Source: Verrucomicrobiota bacterium | GTDB taxonomy: Bacteria > Verrucomicrobiota > Verrucomicrobiia > Limisphaerales > Palsa-1400 | Direction of reading: 5' to 3' | NCBI GenBank assembly: GCA_049510745.1 | Contig: JBEKYR010000029.1 | Coordinates: 1 to 63,777, forward strand | DNA length: 63,777 bases | In this document: positions 11,356 to 19,232 of the stretch, piece after piece | How positions within the stretch are numbered: position 1 is the first letter of the stretch | Layout of the letters: every line of letters begins with the position of its first letter | The notes under the pieces: generated by a model | Databases searched by the model: none | Told to the model about the DNA's origin: nothing | What the model saw: the letters and a program-made list of their open reading frames with translations, nothing else | Program-made: the position numbers and the translations under genes

Positions 11356-11530
11356 GTCGTGCGACAACTACTGCCGGCTTGTTCACCGCTGGTTGCCAGG
11401 CAAATCGCGGTGATTTCCAATGATCCATCAGCGCCACGACCAAAACCTCGATTATGAAAACAGCTTCGCCAGCCAGAAGTTTGGGGTTGAGATTTGGCGG
11501 CAATGGACTAGAACCAATCTCCATGCCATT

Positions 11531-14500
11531 ATGACCGACGGCGATTTTCTTCATGAAGAGCCACCCGCATACGGGAGTGCCGGCAAACCCGCCCCGCTCA
11601 CCGAATATCTGCGCAAACTCGAACGTGCCCTCAAACGCGGCGACGCGACCGAACACACCCATCGCCCCGCGCTCAAGGAACTGATCGAAGCCCTCGACGA
11701 AAACGTCATCGCCACCAACGAACCGAAGCGTTCCGACTGCGGTGCGCCGGATTACGTCGTTTCCCGCAGGCGCGACCAGCTTTCCCTCGGCTACATCGAA
11801 GCCAAGGACATCGGCGCGGACCTGAACGAGATTGAGCGGAGCCAACAGCTCAAGCGCTACCTTGCCTCTCTCCCAAATCTCCTGCTGACTGACTACCTGG
11901 AGTTCCGCTGGTTTGTGGACGGCAAGAAGCGGCAAACCTTCCGCCTCGCCCACCTCGCCCCCAGTGGCAAACTCGCGCCGGTTGCCGCGGATCAACTCGA
12001 ACGCGCCCGCCAGCTCTTGCTCGGTTTTCTTTCGCAAAAACCGGTGGACATTTCCTCCGCCGAGGAACTGGCCCGCCGTCTCGCCAGTCTCACTCACATT
12101 ATCCGCGACATCATCATCCGCGCATTTCTGGCCGGGCAGGCTTCGCAACAGTTGCGCGACTGGCGCGATGCCTTTGCCGCCACCCTTCTGCCCGAACTCG
12201 CGCCGCAAACCGACGCCGGGAAAGAAGCGGAAGCCGTGAGCGAGTTCGCCGATATGTTTGCGCAGACGCTCGCCTACGGTTTGTTCAGCGCCCGCGCCAC
12301 CAGCGGCACCAGCAAATTCACCCGCGAGAAAGCGCAGAAACTTATCCCGCGCACCAACCCCTTTCTCCGCACCTTCTTCGAGCAGATTACCGGCGCGGCG
12401 CTGGACGACGAACCGTTCGCCGGCTTCGTTGAAGATTTAATCCAGACGCTCGATCACGCGGACATGGGACGGGTTATGGAAGACTTTGGCAAACACGGCC
12501 CCCGCCGCGACCCCGTGGTTCATTTCTACGAGACTTTCCTGCAAGCCTACGATCCCAAGCTGCGCGAACTGCGCGGCGTTTATTATACGCCCGAGCCGGT
12601 GGTGAACTACATCGTCCAGAGCATTGACCGCCTCCTGAAAAAAAAGTTCATCATCAAGGCCGGACTCGCCGATCACCAGAAAATTACCGTCAAGCGCAAG
12701 GAAGGCGAAGGCGAGGTCACTGACGAAACGCATCGCGTGCTTATTCTTGACCCCGCCGCAGGCACGGCCACATTTCTCTACACCGTCCTCGATTTCATCC
12801 GTTCACAGTTCAAGACCAGGAAGAATGCCGGCCAGTGGGGCAGTTACGTTCACGAGCATTTGCTACCGCGGCTCTTTGGCTTTGAACTCCTGATGGCTCC
12901 CTATGCCGTGGCGCATTTCAAAATCGGCCTGGCGCTCGCGGCGATGGATGAGGAACCGCTCTTCCGCCAGCAATGGAGCTACGAACCGCAGGGCAGCGAG
13001 CGCGTGAACATTTTCCTCACCAACACGCTGGAGGACTTGGAACACACCGCCGAGCAGCTTGGCCCCCTGCGCGCCTTGAGCGACGAAGCCAATTCCGCCT
13101 ACGAGGTCAAGCAACACAAGCCCGTCCTCGTCATCCTCGGCAATCCGCCTTATTGCGGCCACAGCGCGAACACCGGCGAGTGGATTTCCAAACTCGTCCG
13201 CGATTACTACTTCTGTGACGGCCAGCCGCTCGGCGAGCGGAATCCCAAATGGTTGCAGGACGACTACGTGAAGTTTCTCCGCTGGGGGCAATGGCGCATT
13301 GAGCAGACTGGTCAGGGCGTGCTCGCCTTCATCACCAACCACGGGTACCTTGACAACCCAACCTTTCGCGGCATGAGGCAGAATCTCATGCAGACATTCG
13401 ACGAGATTTACGTCCTCGATTTGCACGGCAATTCGAAGAAGAAGGAAATCGTTCCCGGCACCGGCGAAGCGGATAAGAATGTTTTCGACATCCAGCAAGG
13501 CGTGGCTATTGGCATCTTTGTCAAACTGCCGCCGGACGCGCGGGCGAAAAAGAAAGAGAAGGCTCCCGCCACAGTTCGGCACTGCCATCTGTGGGGCGCC
13601 CAGCGCCAGACGAAATACGACTGGCTGGACCGCAACCAGATTGAAAGCACTGACTGGGCGATGCTTACGCCTGCCGCGCCACACTACCTGTTCATTCCGC
13701 AAGACACCAAGCGGCTCAAGGAATACGAACGGGGCTGGAGGGTCACGGAGATGATGCCCATTCACAGTTTGGGTATCGCGGCCGGACGCGATCATTTCAC
13801 GGTTGCTTTCAGCGGTGAAGAACTTCGCGATAAACTTCAGACATTCCTTGAACTTGACGGCGAAGAAGCAAGACGGCGGTTTGATTTAGGTCCAGATTCA
13901 AGGGATTGGCAGGTCGATCTCGCCCAAGCTGACCTTAAACACGGTAATTGGGATTCGCGCATTACGACAATTCTCTACCGCCCATTCGATCTCCGTGAGA
14001 CCTGTTACACCGGAATCTCCCGTGGATTTCATTGTATGCCGCGGCAAGACGTGATGCGCCACTTCTTGCAAGGGAATCTGAACCTGGGGCTTTCCACGAC
14101 ACGTTCCACGGAAATTCGCCAAGGCTGGACCCATGTATTCGCCACGCAAGAAATAACGCAGTTACACAGCGTCTCGCTCAAAGAGGTTAATTACCTGTTT
14201 CCCCTCTATCTCTATCCAAACGGCAAGCTGCCCGAGGAAGACTTGTTTGCGCAGGAGAATGGCCGTCGCCCCAACTTGAGCGTGGAATTCGTCAAACAGT
14301 TTTGTGAACGACTCAATTGCAGGTTTGTGCCCGATGGATTCGGCCGTCCGTCCCGGCGGGAGGTCGGCCCGGAGTGCATCTTCAATTACGCTTACGCCAT
14401 ATTCCACAGTCCAACTTATCGTGAACGATACGCAGATTTTCTCCGCGCTGACTTTCCACGAGTGCCGCTGACCAGCAATTGGGACCTCTTTGGAGAATTG

Positions 14501-14947
14501 GGGGGCCTTGGCCTGTGGTTGGTGGACTTACACGCACGCGGACAGGGGAAAAACACTCCAGTTGGATTCCCTGTCAAAGGCACGGACGAAGTTCGTGATG
14601 TTCGTTTCCAACCTGTCGCTTCCTTGGTAATTCCCGGTGTAAAACGCATGAAGAGTTCAACCCCATGTGGACAGGTTGAGACGCGGTCTTGGCCCGACAT
14701 TAAAGCGGGCCGCGTCTGGATCAATGACCGGCAGTATTTCGAGCCTGTGCCGGGAGCCGCTTGGAAATTCTCCATCGGCGGCTACCTGCCCGCGCAACGC
14801 TGGCTCAAAGACCGCATCGGCCGCACCCTCGCTTTCGAGGAACAGGCAGAATATCAGCGCATCATCTGGGCCTTGCTCGAAACGCGGCGACTGATGGCTG
14901 AGATCGATGCCAGCATCAAACACTACGGCGGCTGGCCCATGAGGTAA
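11531..14947 (+). CDS. Single-chain restriction-modification enzyme (N6-adenine MTase, type ISP-like C-terminal specificity domain, no helicase; type IIG-like)
   Basis: N-terminal PD..EAK nuclease (GAPDYVV..YIEAKD), GVYYTPEPVV, motif I LDPAAGTATF, motif IV GNPPY, LDLHGN, FSIGGYLPAQRWLKDR. Confidence 0.88.
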   Translation: MTDGDFLHEEPPAYGSAGKPAPLTEYLRKLERALKRGDATEHTHRPALKELIEALDENVIATNEPKRSDCGAPDYVVSRRRDQLSLGYIEAKDIGADLNEIERSQQLKRYLASLPNLLLTDYLEFRWFVDGKKRQTFRLAHLAPSGKLAPVAADQLERARQLLLGFLSQKPVDISSAEELARRLASLTHIIRDIIIRAFLAGQASQQLRDWRDAFAATLLPELAPQTDAGKEAEAVSEFADMFAQTLAYGLFSARATSGTSKFTREKAQKLIPRTNPFLRTFFEQITGAALDDEPFAGFVEDLIQTLDHADMGRVMEDFGKHGPRRDPVVHFYETFLQAYDPKLRELRGVYYTPEPVVNYIVQSIDRLLKKKFIIKAGLADHQKITVKRKEGEGEVTDETHRVLILDPAAGTATFLYTVLDFIRSQFKTRKNAGQWGSYVHEHLLPRLFGFELLMAPYAVAHFKIGLALAAMDEEPLFRQQWSYEPQGSERVNIFLTNTLEDLEHTAEQLGPLRALSDEANSAYEVKQHKPVLVILGNPPYCGHSANTGEWISKLVRDYYFCDGQPLGERNPKWLQDDYVKFLRWGQWRIEQTGQGVLAFITNHGYLDNPTFRGMRQNLMQTFDEIYVLDLHGNSKKKEIVPGTGEADKNVFDIQQGVAIGIFVKLPPDARAKKKEKAPATVRHCHLWGAQRQTKYDWLDRNQIESTDWAMLTPAAPHYLFIPQDTKRLKEYERGWRVTEMMPIHSLGIAAGRDHFTVAFSGEELRDKLQTFLELDGEEARRRFDLGPDSRDWQVDLAQADLKHGNWDSRITTILYRPFDLRETCYTGISRGFHCMPRQDVMRHFLQGNLNLGLSTTRSTEIRQGWTHVFATQEITQLHSVSLKEVNYLFPLYLYPNGKLPEEDLFAQENGRRPNLSVEFVKQFCERLNCRFVPDGFGRPSRREVGPECIFNYAYAIFHSPTYRERYADFLRADFPRVPLTSNWDLFGELGGLGLWLVDLHARGQGKNTPVGFPVKGTDEVRDVRFQPVASLVIPGVKRMKSSTPCGQVETRSWPDIKAGRVWINDRQYFEPVPGAAWKFSIGGYLPAQRWLKDRIGRTLAFEEQAEYQRIIWALLETRRLMAEIDASIKHYGGWPMR

Positions 14948-14954
14948 TCGCTTT

Positions 14955-15905
14955 ATGAATGGATGGCTGAAGATGGCGGCGGCGGTTTGTTTTTGCGGCG
15001 CGCTGGCGGGCTGCTTTTCGCGGCCGGTTGGACAGATGGAGCCGGGTTACAGGGCCTACACTCTGGCCGCCGAACAAATCTGGCAAATGAACCTGCCTGG
15101 CGGACAACGGTTCGACGCTTCCGGCCTCTTCCTGGAAAAATCCGGCGCTTTGCTGACGGAAAGCGATCAAAGCATCGGCGTCTATCGCATCCGTTTCACG
15201 CCGGGCAGCGATTCGGTGGATCTGGAGCGTATTCCCGATTGTTTCACGGCGGCGCAGTTGGCCCCTTTTGCGCGGGAAAAATCCGGACGCTACGATTGCG
15301 AGGGCGTCACCGAGGACGACCTGGGCCGGATTTACCTCTGCGAAGAGGCCGACCGCTGGATTTTGCGCTGGGACCCGCGCTCCAATTCCGTCGAGCGCCT
15401 TGACATTGATTGGACACCTGTCAAGAAGTATTTCTCCCGCGATCGCAACGCCGCCTGGGAGGGCATCGCCATCCACGATGGGACGTTGTATGTGGCCAAT
15501 GAACGAAAACGCGGGCGCCTCATCGCCGTCGATCTCCGAACACTCAAGGTGACGGATGATTTTGCGGTGCGCGCCAGCCGCAGCCTTTGGTGGGAGCCTC
15601 ATTATTCCGACCTGTGCTGGTTCGACGGCGCGCTCTATGCGTTGATGCGCGAGGACCACGTCATCCTGAAAATCAACCCAGCCACGCACCGCGTCCTGGC
15701 CGAATACAATTTCGCCAGAATGGAAAACGACCGCGAAGTGGCCTATCACAAAGTCGTTCCCCTCGTCGTCGGCGTCATGGAAGGGCTGGCCGTGGACAGG
15801 GATTATTTCTGGCTCTGCACCGATAACAACGGGTTGAGCCGCAAAAAATATCCCGGCGACACCCGCCCGACGCTTTTCAAGTGCCGCCGGCCCGATGCGT
15901 TTTAA
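14955..15905 (+). CDS. Lipoprotein, SdiA-regulated/phytase-like beta-propeller
   Basis: Lipobox LAGC; repeats DASGL, DCEGVT, WEGIA, YSDL, MEGLAVD, TDNNG. Confidence 0.65.
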   Translation: MNGWLKMAAAVCFCGALAGCFSRPVGQMEPGYRAYTLAAEQIWQMNLPGGQRFDASGLFLEKSGALLTESDQSIGVYRIRFTPGSDSVDLERIPDCFTAAQLAPFAREKSGRYDCEGVTEDDLGRIYLCEEADRWILRWDPRSNSVERLDIDWTPVKKYFSRDRNAAWEGIAIHDGTLYVANERKRGRLIAVDLRTLKVTDDFAVRASRSLWWEPHYSDLCWFDGALYALMREDHVILKINPATHRVLAEYNFARMENDREVAYHKVVPLVVGVMEGLAVDRDYFWLCTDNNGLSRKKYPGDTRPTLFKCRRPDAF

Positions 15906-15941: not shown

Positions 15942-17021
15942 GTGGCGATTCGTAATATTATATTTGACTGGTCGGGGACCCTGGTCGATGACTTGCCGGC
16001 CGTGCTGGCGGCGACCAATTTTGTCTTCGCACAGTGCGGCGTGGAGCCGATGAGCCTGGAAAAGTTCCGCGCCGAATTTTGCCTGCCGTTCAAGAGTTTT
16101 TACGACCGCTTCACGCCGGGCGTCCCAGTGGCCGAATTGGAACGGACCTTCCACGGCCATTTCCGCCACGTGCAGGACGCGGTGACGGAGGTGCCCCACG
16201 CCCGCGAGTTTCTGATCTTTTGCCGCAAGCATCGGTTGCGCACCTTTGTCTTGAGCACGGTGCATCCGGACTATTACGCGTTGCAGGCGGGCGCGACTGG
16301 TTTCGCCCAATACATTGACCGGCCCTATCTGGGCGTCTGGGACAAGCGGGCCAAGATCGTGGAATTGCTGGCCGAAAACCAGTTGTCCGCCGCCGAAACC
16401 CTGTTCATCGGCGACATGCAGCATGACATCGAGACGGCCAAATACGGCGGCGTCCATTCCTGCGCGGTCCTGACCGGCTACAACCGCCTGGAGCAGTTGC
16501 GCGCCAGCGAGCCGGACTTGATCGTCGAACATCTGGGCGAGCTGCGCGGCATCCTGGAGCGCGCCGGATTTGACCTGCGCCCACGGCCGGGCGGCGCGAC
16601 GGGGGACGGGCCGGCGCATCCGGTTTGCACGGTGGGCGCGCTGATTTTCAACGCCGACAACCGGGTGCTGATGGTTCGCACGCAAAAATGGTCCAACCTC
16701 TGGGGCATCCCGGGCGGCAAAATAAAATTCGGCGAGCCGTCGCTCGAGGCGCTGCGGCGCGAGATCAAAGAGGAAACCAGCCTCGACATCGGCGACATCA
16801 GGTTTGTCCTCGCGCAGGACTGCATTCACTCCAAGGAGTTCTATCGCGAGGCTCATTTTGTCCTGCTCAATTACACCTGCCGGGTGGAAGGCAATGCCGC
16901 CGTGAAATTGAATGAGGAAGCGCAGGAATTCCGCTGGATGCCCCCGGCGGAGGCGCTGGCCATGCCGTTGAACCAGCCGACACGGACGCTGCTGGAAAAG
17001 GTGTTGAAGACCGCCGCATGA
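15942..17021 (+). CDS. HAD-hydrolase / NUDIX hydrolase fusion
   Basis: HAD motif I FDWSGTLVD, motif IV FIGDMQHDI; Nudix box GKIKFGEPSLEALRREIKEETSL; GTG start; ATGA overlap with folB. Confidence 0.88.
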   Translation: MAIRNIIFDWSGTLVDDLPAVLAATNFVFAQCGVEPMSLEKFRAEFCLPFKSFYDRFTPGVPVAELERTFHGHFRHVQDAVTEVPHAREFLIFCRKHRLRTFVLSTVHPDYYALQAGATGFAQYIDRPYLGVWDKRAKIVELLAENQLSAAETLFIGDMQHDIETAKYGGVHSCAVLTGYNRLEQLRASEPDLIVEHLGELRGILERAGFDLRPRPGGATGDGPAHPVCTVGALIFNADNRVLMVRTQKWSNLWGIPGGKIKFGEPSLEALRREIKEETSLDIGDIRFVLAQDCIHSKEFYREAHFVLLNYTCRVEGNAAVKLNEEAQEFRWMPPAEALAMPLNQPTRTLLEKVLKTAA

Positions 17022-17404
17022 CGCACACCATGGACCAGATAGTCATCAAGGATTTGGAGGTTTTCTACCGCGTGGGTGTCTCGGAGCAAGAGCGCGCCCA
17101 GCCGCAACGGCTGCTGCTGACCGTCGAGATGGCGCACCCGTTCGCCGCCGCCGCCGGGCGCGATGACCTGGAACAAACCATCAATTATTACACCGTGGCG
17201 CAACGTCTGTTGCGTTTTGGCGAAGCACGCTCGTGGAAATTGATCGAAACCGTGGCCGTCGAGATCGCAGCCGTGGTTCTCCGCGAATTCGCGCCCAAAC
17301 GGGTCAGCGTGGAAGTGAAAAAATTTGTGTTGCCGGAAGCGGCGTGCGTTTCGGTGCGCGTCAGCCGCGCGCTCCCGCGGCGGCGCCGGGTGTCCAACAA
17401 GTGA
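17018..17404 (+). CDS. folB: Dihydroneopterin aldolase
   Basis: DQIVIKDLEV..VGV..ERAQPQRL, DDLEQTINY, KLIETVA, SVEVKK. Confidence 0.92.
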   Translation: MTHTMDQIVIKDLEVFYRVGVSEQERAQPQRLLLTVEMAHPFAAAAGRDDLEQTINYYTVAQRLLRFGEARSWKLIETVAVEIAAVVLREFAPKRVSVEVKKFVLPEAACVSVRVSRALPRRRRVSNK

Positions 17405-17480: not shown

Positions 17481-17951
17481 ATGAAACGATTTCTTTTTGG
17501 ATTTTTGCTCGGGGCGCTGGCGGTGGGGGCCTTCTGGTATTTCCGCGGCCAGCCGCAAAAGCCGTCGTTGGAAGAGGCGCGTGACCGGATCGTCTCCGGC
17601 GCGGTCGAAGCGGAGAGCGTGGCGCGAATCCGGTTGCAGTCGCTGGGCCTGACGCCGGAGAGCATCAAGGAGGAATTGGCCCGCACCGGCAAAGTGATCC
17701 GGCAGAAGAGCCAGGTCGTCGGCCACGCCATTGCCGACGCCGCCGCCGACACCCGCATCACGACCGGCATCAAGGCGAAATACCTGGCCGACCCGGACCT
17801 GTCCGCGTTGAGCATCTCTGTCAATACGACCGCTGGCTGCGTGACGCTTTCCGGCACGGCCAGCACCCTGGAAAACATCAGCAAAGCCATGTCGCTGGCC
17901 TACGAGACCGACGGGGTGACGCAGGTGATCTCGACCTTGCAGGTGAAGTAA
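17481..17951 (+). CDS. BON domain protein (OsmY-like)
   Basis: N-terminal TM; DTRITTGIKAKY..ISVNTTAGCVTLSG..DGVTQV. Confidence 0.85.
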   Translation: MKRFLFGFLLGALAVGAFWYFRGQPQKPSLEEARDRIVSGAVEAESVARIRLQSLGLTPESIKEELARTGKVIRQKSQVVGHAIADAAADTRITTGIKAKYLADPDLSALSISVNTTAGCVTLSGTASTLENISKAMSLAYETDGVTQVISTLQVK

Positions 17952-17957
17952 GGCCCG

Positions 17958-19133
17958 TCAGCCCTGCCGGCCGCGGACGAATTGCTCCATGCGCTCCAAC
18001 CCCTTCTCAATGTTCTCCATGCTCGTGGCGTAGCTGATGCGGACGTAATCGTCGGCCCCAAAAGCCACGCCGGGAACGACGGCGACCTTCTGGCGTTCGA
18101 GCAATTGCGCGGAAAACTCCATCGACTTGAGGCCCGTCCCGGAAATGTTGGGGAAGAGGTAAAAGGCGCCTTTGGCGTTGACGCACGAGATGCCGGGAAT
18201 GCTGTTGAGTTTTTTCCAGGCGTAGGCGCGGCGCCGCGCGAATTCCGCCAGCCAGACCGCCAGATGGTCCTGCGGCCCGTTCAACGCCACCACCGCGCCT
18301 TTTTGCGCGAACGAGGTCGGATTGCTCGTGCTGTGGCTCTGGATGGCGTCGATGGCCCGGGCGATCGGCTCCGGCGCGGCCGTCAGGCCGATGCGCCAGC
18401 CGGTCATCGAGTAAGCCTTGGCCAGCCCATGCACGAGGACGGTGTGCTCGTAATGCTGCGGTGAAAAACCCGCCACGCTGACGTGCTCGGCGCCGTCATA
18501 AACGAGCTTTTCGTAAATCTCATCGCTCATGATGAGCACGCCCTTTTCCACGCAGATGTCGCCCAGCGCCCTGATCTCTTCGCGCGTGTAAAGCGAGCCG
18601 GTCGGATTGCTGGGCGAATTGAGGATGAACAGGCGCGTGCGCGGCGTGAGGGCGGCGCGCAATTGCGCGGGCGTGATTTTGAAATCGGTCTTGTCCGTCG
18701 TTTCGATGATGACCGGCTTGGCTTCCGCCAGGCGGGCCATTTCCGGGTAGCTCAACCAATACGGCGCCGGGATGACCACTTCGTCGCCGGGGTCGCACGT
18801 GGCCAGGATGACGTTGCAACAGGAATGTTTGCCGCCGCACGAAATGATGATTTGCGACGGTTTGTATGTCAGGCCGTTGTCGCGCTTGAATTTGTCCGCC
18901 GCCGCCTGGCGCAACTCCGGGATGCCGCTGCTGGGGGTGTATTTGGTGAAGCCATCGTTGAGCGCCTGGATGGCCGCCTGGGTGATATGTTTGGGCGTCG
19001 GAAAATCCGGCTCGCCCGCGCCGAATCCGACGACATCGATGCCTTCGGCCTTCATTTGTTTGGCCTTGGCGTCTATGGCCAGGGTGATCGAGGGCGTCAG
19101 CGCCGCTGCCCGGCGCGAAATATGGTATTTCAT
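17958..19133 (-). CDS. aspC: Aspartate aminotransferase (class I PLP)
   Basis: GAGEPDF, NSPSNPTG, SDEIYEKL, AKAYSMTGWRIG, GAFYLFP, RISYATS. Confidence 0.9.
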   Translation of the reverse strand: MKYHISRRAAALTPSITLAIDAKAKQMKAEGIDVVGFGAGEPDFPTPKHITQAAIQALNDGFTKYTPSSGIPELRQAAADKFKRDNGLTYKPSQIIISCGGKHSCCNVILATCDPGDEVVIPAPYWLSYPEMARLAEAKPVIIETTDKTDFKITPAQLRAALTPRTRLFILNSPSNPTGSLYTREEIRALGDICVEKGVLIMSDEIYEKLVYDGAEHVSVAGFSPQHYEHTVLVHGLAKAYSMTGWRIGLTAAPEPIARAIDAIQSHSTSNPTSFAQKGAVVALNGPQDHLAVWLAEFARRRAYAWKKLNSIPGISCVNAKGAFYLFPNISGTGLKSMEFSAQLLERQKVAVVPGVAFGADDYVRISYATSMENIEKGLERMEQFVRGRQG

Positions 19134-19232
19134 AGTCAAGATGGAAAGAAATAGCGGCGCGGGGGCGCAGAATTCAAGGAATAAAGCGCGGAATTTTCGC
19201 TGCGCGACGAAAAAAACGCGAAGCCTAAGCGG

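Follow-up and report, generated by a model that had tools for sequence, protein, structure and literature searches.

In the folate pathway, three phosphates must come off between FolE2 and FolB. According to PMC1971073, the pyrophosphate is removed by the Nudix hydrolase FolQ and the last phosphate by a phosphatase believed to be non-specific, and the FolQ pyrophosphatase gene is missing in most genomes. A figure legend in a 2026 review labels a phosphatase of the pterin pathway, possibly that of the last step, as 'unidentified' (PMC13259868). The described systems closest to the locus analyzed here are FolQ of Lactococcus lactis and NudB of E. coli. The locus shares with them the Nudix fold and Nudix box, the location among folate genes and the predicted reaction, but its Nudix domain is not a sequence ortholog of theirs and is fused to a HAD domain. 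A FolQ-FolB fusion of Parachlamydia sp. UWE25, reported in 2007 (PMC1971073), resembles 14 Nudix-FolB proteins found in this work; the relevant part of that paper mentions no HAD domain.

A HAD enzyme filling a long-unassigned phosphatase step of a vitamin pathway would have a parallel in riboflavin synthesis. There, the dephosphorylation step was only recently assigned to nonspecific HAD enzymes, namely E. coli YigB and enzymes of B. subtilis and Arabidopsis (PMC12051542). In contrast to these, the HAD domain described below occurs time and again in fusion with, or beside, the enzyme that follows it in its pathway, which suggests dedication. In the literature searched, with most subscription journals outside the search, we found no description of a HAD-Nudix or HAD-FolB fusion, nor of a dedicated dihydroneopterin monophosphate phosphatase.

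A HAD-Nudix gene upstream of folB

The window, that is, the whole stretch of DNA analyzed, comprises 63,777 nucleotides from a Verrucomicrobiota bacterium. On its forward strand, positions 15942–17021 hold a gene with a GTG start encoding a protein of 359 residues, as supported by the ORF call, the AlphaFold2 model and relatives. The initial annotation described this protein as a fusion of HAD and Nudix with an intact Nudix box, and both domains are indeed present. Pfam detects HAD_2 at residues 6–176 (E = 3e-16) and NUDIX at residues 230–352 (E = 3.5e-23; 82.5 bits against a cut-off of 21.1). The HAD domain proper spans residues 3–205 (15948–16556) and, judging from Pfam, NCBIfam and fold matches, belongs to the Gph/PpaX-like C1 type, its helical cap covering roughly residues 18–80. 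It is followed by a flexible linker (about residues 209–225; 16566–16616) and the Nudix domain (residues 226–355; 16617–17006). The AlphaFold2 model (mean pLDDT 93.8, pTM 0.84) consists of a C1-cap HAD, a linker disordered at residues 217–222, where pLDDT falls below 50, and a Nudix domain. The best fold match of the HAD domain is the uncharacterized HAD protein SP0104 (2ah5; Z 26.2, rmsd 1.9, 205 residues aligned, 20% identity), and the Nudix domain matches 4dyw (Z 18.3, rmsd 1.9, 125 residues aligned). Pfam, the alignment and the model all agree with a C1-cap HAD in having the Rossmannoid core, the helical cap behind motif I and motifs II–IV. The HAD-Nudix gene is genuine.

The downstream gene, at 17030–17404 on the same strand, is folB, encoding dihydroneopterin aldolase. 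Its product matches Pfam FolB with E = 5e-25 and marginally passes the TIGR00525 folB model (73.6 bits against a cut-off of 72.15), while it fails the FolX model (46.2 against 152); it is the only FolB match in the source genome. An ATGA overlap between the two genes had been claimed. The tetranucleotide does exist at 17018–17021 and offers an alternative ATG at 17018 that overlaps the stop of the upstream gene, but the true start is probably the ATG at 17030, the one used by relatives. Since a −4 start is possible in just 8 of 101 folB-adjacent loci and relatives start at the position of 17030, folB probably begins 8 nt past the stop of the fusion gene without overlapping it. The same 8 of 101 loci rule out ATGA translational coupling as a trait of the family. 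A scan for promoters and terminators around the gene gave signals no more than in shuffled sequences. Directly upstream on the forward strand is a phytase-like (PF13449) protein of 316 residues with a lipoprotein-like N-terminus (14955–15905), preceded by a Type ISP restriction-modification-like protein of 1175 residues with N6_Mtase and Type_ISP_C domains (11420–14947, forward strand). Downstream of folB, Pfam identifies a BON-domain protein (17481–17951, forward strand) and a class I/II aminotransferase (17958–19139, reverse strand).

Conservation of the folB linkage, suggested earlier as a check on a functional tie between the two genes, turned out to be strong. The fusion gene has a match with E ≤ 1e-86 in 38 of 40 relative genomes, and folB lies directly downstream in 26 of 29 relatives (27 of the 30 best loci if the locus itself is counted). 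Among the best 80 of at least 569 confirmed GTDB loci, folB lies within 400 nt in 72, farther away in three and is missing from five. Of 539 confirmed metagenome loci, 80 were considered, many of them still Verrucomicrobiota-like by motif; FolB is fused or adjacent in 65, elsewhere in the locus in four and absent in five, the remaining six ending at a contig edge. All these counts refer to related loci and are not independent trials; the named relatives are Verrucomicrobiota, many of them Limisphaerales or subdivision 3. The pairing of HAD-Nudix with folB is not a chance one and recurs through the order and the class. Exceptions include three loci of family f24 (Methylacidiphilaceae) and genome G010, where both genes are present and the HAD is unlinked from folB. 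In Methylacidiphilales-type loci (L034, L035, L049 and L037), a gene in the vicinity of the HAD looks, on visual inspection, like a homocysteine methyltransferase/MetF fusion.

Other pterin genes accompany the fusion gene in divergent loci. In one divergent clade, the order is folB-folE-PTPS-fusion in L223 (2497–5001) and folE-PTPS-fusion in L180 (1–1674), and the fusion gene of L182 (3401–5691) is convergent to folE and folB; the PTPS genes are identified by likeness. Moreover, SDR proteins resembling pteridine reductases and carrying TGxxxRxG are encoded beside the gene in L149, L156, L183 and L195 and, according to BLAST, in three more loci; TGX3RXG is given as the pteridine-reductase motif in PMC1971073.

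Fusions, domain losses and distribution

We surveyed 150 representatives of the Nudix domain for fusions, using our own HMMs on all of them and Pfam on 55 picked by length. This revealed the 14 Nudix-FolB proteins and seven HAD-Nudix-FolB proteins; one fusion protein is named from Planctomycetes. HAD-FolB proteins without Nudix account for 10 of 20 hand-picked loci of the phylum, where they belong to genus g31 (Akkermansia); one of these bears the name 'HAD hydrolase-like protein [Akkermansia muciniphila]'. Five metagenome loci have such a fusion as well. Thus, the HAD-FolB, Nudix-FolB and triple fusions tie each of the two domains separately to FolB. Among the top 120 hits of a search for longer HAD fusions, 119 were HAD-Nudix and one was different.

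The domain combinations were mapped onto a quick LG+G4 tree, for which the 235 HAD domains were dereplicated to 115 and one outgroup was added. Fusion to FolB requires 10 changes (at least six forced by starred branches) and absence of Nudix 11 (at least five forced, with two contig-edge rows excluded), although such counts cannot separate gain from loss. Clean deletions of Nudix with folB still adjacent are seen in GTDB loci L062, L102 and L110, and the HAD usually remains with folB after repeated Nudix loss. In L064 (5789–5794) and G014 (contig C9, 187368–188421), what looks like a frameshift interrupts the Nudix part, representing either sequencing error or real decay; L064, where the split looks like a single frameshift, was scored as HAD-Nudix in the tree. 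Decay also affects the other domain. Nine of the 150 Nudix representatives (P0150, P0152, P0159, P0166, P0172, P0188, P0200, P0232 and P0241) carry a shrunken HAD remnant without catalytic Asp residues (hhalign 97%, E = 1e-10). These are scattered over the Nudix tree, a weak one based on a short alignment, with nine changes, at least four of them forced, so that HAD decay apparently arose several times.

In a sample of 301 genomes of class Verrucomicrobiia, the HAD is present in 204 and FolB in 278, about 80 FolB-positive genomes being without the HAD. FolB is not detected in 23 genomes. Among the 20 of these that were listed, 16 also have no HAD, six of them in families otherwise carrying both, and four (G352, G345, G456 and G468) keep the HAD. 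No folB was found beside the HAD gene in the three of these four that were inspected, and FolB may be missing owing to incomplete assembly.

The source genome itself encodes FolE2, FolK and a Pterin_bind match of FolP size in addition to the one FolB. Besides FolE2, it has a partial FolE at the border of a contig (the two matches lie at C21:2-142 and C37:8011-8760), so both types of GTP cyclohydrolase I may be present. The one PTPS encoded there carries CxxxHGH, the motif of the QueD type, and scores above the QueD cut-off; therefore, no PTPS-III bypass of FolB was found in this genome.

For Akkermansia, the curated reconstruction given in supplement files 1 and 9 to PMC6593275 lists five genomes as folate prototrophs, with FolE2 present, the FolQ, FolQ2 and FolQ3 columns empty and FolB filled in four of five. 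The Nudix domain studied here was found in none of 20 g31 (Akkermansia) genomes. Chlamydia is known to bypass GTP cyclohydrolase I through RibA/TrpF (PMC4161248), and we considered whether a similar lack of this enzyme could explain the absence of Nudix. This possibility was rejected, since all five Nudix-less genomes tested encode FolE2; FolE was found in none of the five. They contain two to eight other Nudix matches each.

Active sites of the two domains

The Nudix box (G259–L281; 16716–16784) reads G259...E265...R273-E274-I-K-E277-E278-T-S-L. Together with the fold, it conforms to the superfamily pattern GX5EX7REUXEEXGU at all charged positions, differing in the penultimate Gly, which is Ser here. 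All 120 close homologs retain G259, E265, R273, E274, E277 and E278. By sequence, the nearest solved Nudix structure is NudI (YfaO), a nucleoside triphosphatase of E. coli and Salmonella (E = 5e-9), ahead of NudB (2o1c, E = 8e-5). The domain scores 33.1 bits against the 103 required by the NudB equivalog model NF006961, and hence is not a sequence ortholog of NudB; it does not reach the NudI cut-off either (38.6 bits against 95). We know of no role of NudI in pterin metabolism. With NudI rather than NudB as the closest characterized relative, it is context alone that points to the substrate. This context, clustering and fusion with genes belonging to the pterin branch, is that of the NudB/FolQ functional class, and it makes dihydroneopterin triphosphate the probable substrate of the Nudix domain.

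Conservation of the HAD active site was assessed in an alignment of 235 HAD domains representing all four architectures. As the initial annotation noted, motif I is not DxDGT: it reads D9-W-S-G-T13 (15966–15980), with D9 present in 232 of 235 sequences. Position 11 (D+2), the place of the general acid, is Ser in 224, Ala in seven, Cys in two and a gap in two, and thus Asp in 0 of 233 sequences covering it. Motif II is S105-T106 (16254–16259; Ser or Thr at 105 in 234 of 235) and motif III is K135 (16344–16346; 235 of 235). Motif IV, G157-D158-M-Q-H161-D162 (16410–16427), combines D158 (235 of 235) and D162 (234 of 235) with a family-specific His at 161 (230 of 235). D17 is kept in 231 domains. 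D9, K135, D158 and D162 are near-invariant in every architecture, stand-alone HAD and HAD-FolB included, indicating that both the nucleophile and the metal ligands are under selection in each.

In HAD phosphatases, the D+2 Asp serves as the general acid/base (PMC8069645). The canonical phosphomonoesterase signature, DxD with its second Asp in this role, is therefore absent from all 233 sequences. Hydrolysis of alkyl phosphate monoesters normally requires a general acid, and HADs without the D+2 Asp, such as P-type ATPases and phosphonatases, typically act on good leaving groups. A possible precedent for a HAD phosphatase without the D+2 Asp is E. coli YihX. H161 occupies what we take to be the place of the phosphate-contacting Asn in GDxxND motifs; hence, the role of the absent general acid may fall to this His or to D17.

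The nearest HAD families are phosphoglycolate phosphatases, and 'phosphoglycolate phosphatase' is the default name given to this HAD in databases. PpaX and a Bacteroides HAD pyrophosphatase are also among its sequence and fold neighbors. It resembles the C1-cap HADs of the Gph/PpaX/SP0104 type in fold and in motifs II–IV, but differs in having DWSGT instead of DxDGT and His in motif IV, with identity of about 20%. Neither equivalog model is passed, the best Gph score being 52.6 bits against 225 and the PpaX score 32.3 against 218.

Possible roles in dihydroneopterin dephosphorylation

We propose that the fusion protein acts as a dihydroneopterin dephosphorylase that works in two steps and supplies FolB, a reading to which we assign a probability of roughly one half. 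FolE2 (or FolE) would supply dihydroneopterin triphosphate, which the Nudix domain would convert into the monophosphate and pyrophosphate in a reaction of the FolQ/NudB type. The Mg-dependent HAD domain would then hydrolyze the monophosphate through a phospho-intermediate at Asp9, and FolB would cleave the dephosphorylated product. That dihydroneopterin monophosphate is the HAD substrate seems reasonably likely, if less so than the assignment for Nudix. As the initial annotation did, we infer that one protein performs both steps. Most likely, it works like FolQ plus the pathway phosphatase, yet it belongs to neither the NudB nor the Gph equivalog. In its favor are the conserved folB linkage, the fusions of either domain to FolB, retention of folB after Nudix deletion, the pterin genes of divergent loci, the remaining pterin-branch genes in the source genome and the empty FolQ columns of the Akkermansia prototrophs. 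Several observations argue against the proposal: the missing general-acid Asp, HAD decay, FolB-containing genomes without the HAD, four genomes with the HAD in which FolB was not detected, HADs unlinked from folB and a Nudix domain non-orthologous to NudB. The first two, together with repeated loss of Nudix, show that neither half is universally needed, and the HAD may have other substrates. General enzymes able to cover either step would explain the domain losses.

A bolder version of the proposal is that the DWSGT HAD is the first dedicated dihydroneopterin monophosphate phosphatase, using His161 or Asp17 as a non-canonical acid/base, and that in Akkermansia and other Nudix-less lineages the HAD-FolB fusion by itself takes off all three phosphates before passing the product on to the aldolase. 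We regard this version as speculative and rather doubtful.

Of the alternatives, the one that survives best, though unlikely, also places both domains in the pterin branch, with the HAD cleaving phosphoanhydrides. It would trim the tri- and diphosphate, possibly removing all three phosphates, or hydrolyze the pyrophosphate released by Nudix, and so overlap with the Nudix domain. Such chemistry would suit the preference of D+2-less HADs for good leaving groups and the presence of PpaX and the Bacteroides pyrophosphatase among the neighbors. Functional overlap would also account for the loss of either domain. In addition, Akkermansia lacks this Nudix, and NudB is feedback-inhibited by pyrophosphate (PMC4790348). 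However, if the two sites were redundant, it would be surprising for both to remain invariant within one chain in most genomes, and nothing would keep a pure pyrophosphatase by FolB once Nudix is gone. In the five Nudix-less genomes, moreover, the first step could be done by the other Nudix matches.

A reversed order of reactions is improbable. Here, this clade of FolB would cleave the monophosphate directly and the HAD would clear the released glycolaldehyde 2-phosphate. A role in by-product removal would tie the HAD to FolB with or without Nudix and agrees with phosphoglycolate phosphatases being the closest families; PTPS-III enzymes are known to cleave phosphorylated neopterins by an aldol reaction, according to an annotation in PMC5041015. 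On the other hand, this FolB scores above the cut-off for an ordinary folB equivalog and below that for FolX, the likeness to Gph is generic and far under the cut-offs, and Gph enzymes retain DxD in the alignments.

We also give little credence to a model in which only Nudix is catalytic, acting as FolQ, the HAD serves to bind phosphate or pterin or has a structural function, and the last step is left to general phosphatases, as happens in other bacteria. The absent general acid, the nine decayed HAD cores that stay fused to Nudix and the 14 Nudix-FolB fusions without HAD would all be expected, but the near-invariance of D9, K135, D158 and D162 in all four architectures fits catalysis better than a scaffold. 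Finally, a house-cleaning pair of a NudI/MutT-like nucleotide pyrophosphatase and a nucleotidase, residing by folB through an inherited operon and having no action on pterins, would agree with NudI being the closest characterized Nudix, with a single ancestral cluster that all Verrucomicrobiota loci may share, with fusions of this Nudix family to an unrelated deaminase, GrpE and a methylase, and with retention of the gene in a few genomes without detected folB, but it is improbable because inertia can hardly produce the repeated FolB fusions and the rearranged neighborhoods containing folE, PTPS, pteridine-reductase-like genes and a fusion to pterin carbinolamine dehydratase (P0197).

As a putative two-step dephosphorylase, the HAD-Nudix gene is a strong candidate for both folate-pathway steps and is directly testable. 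The family offers one concrete and readily purified protein for them in about two thirds of the sampled Verrucomicrobiia-class genomes, and would occupy a cell left empty in the curated folate pathway of Akkermansia, a gut commensal. If active, the HAD would exemplify monoester hydrolysis without the textbook general acid, and many 'phosphoglycolate phosphatase' annotations would be corrected.

The same Nudix subfamily also occurs in other fusions, with a Cof-type HAD (a second phosphatase class), pterin-4a-carbinolamine dehydratase, a CMP/dCMP-type deaminase and an SDR (P0214, P0197, P0176, P0283, P0295 and P0352). In the ESM Atlas, the clusters with stand-alone look-alikes of this Nudix come for the most part from Cyanobacteriota, Chloroflexota and Deinococcota, and Planctomycetota supply most of the 62 members in a FolB+Nudix cluster; these proteins are FolQ candidates for the phyla concerned.
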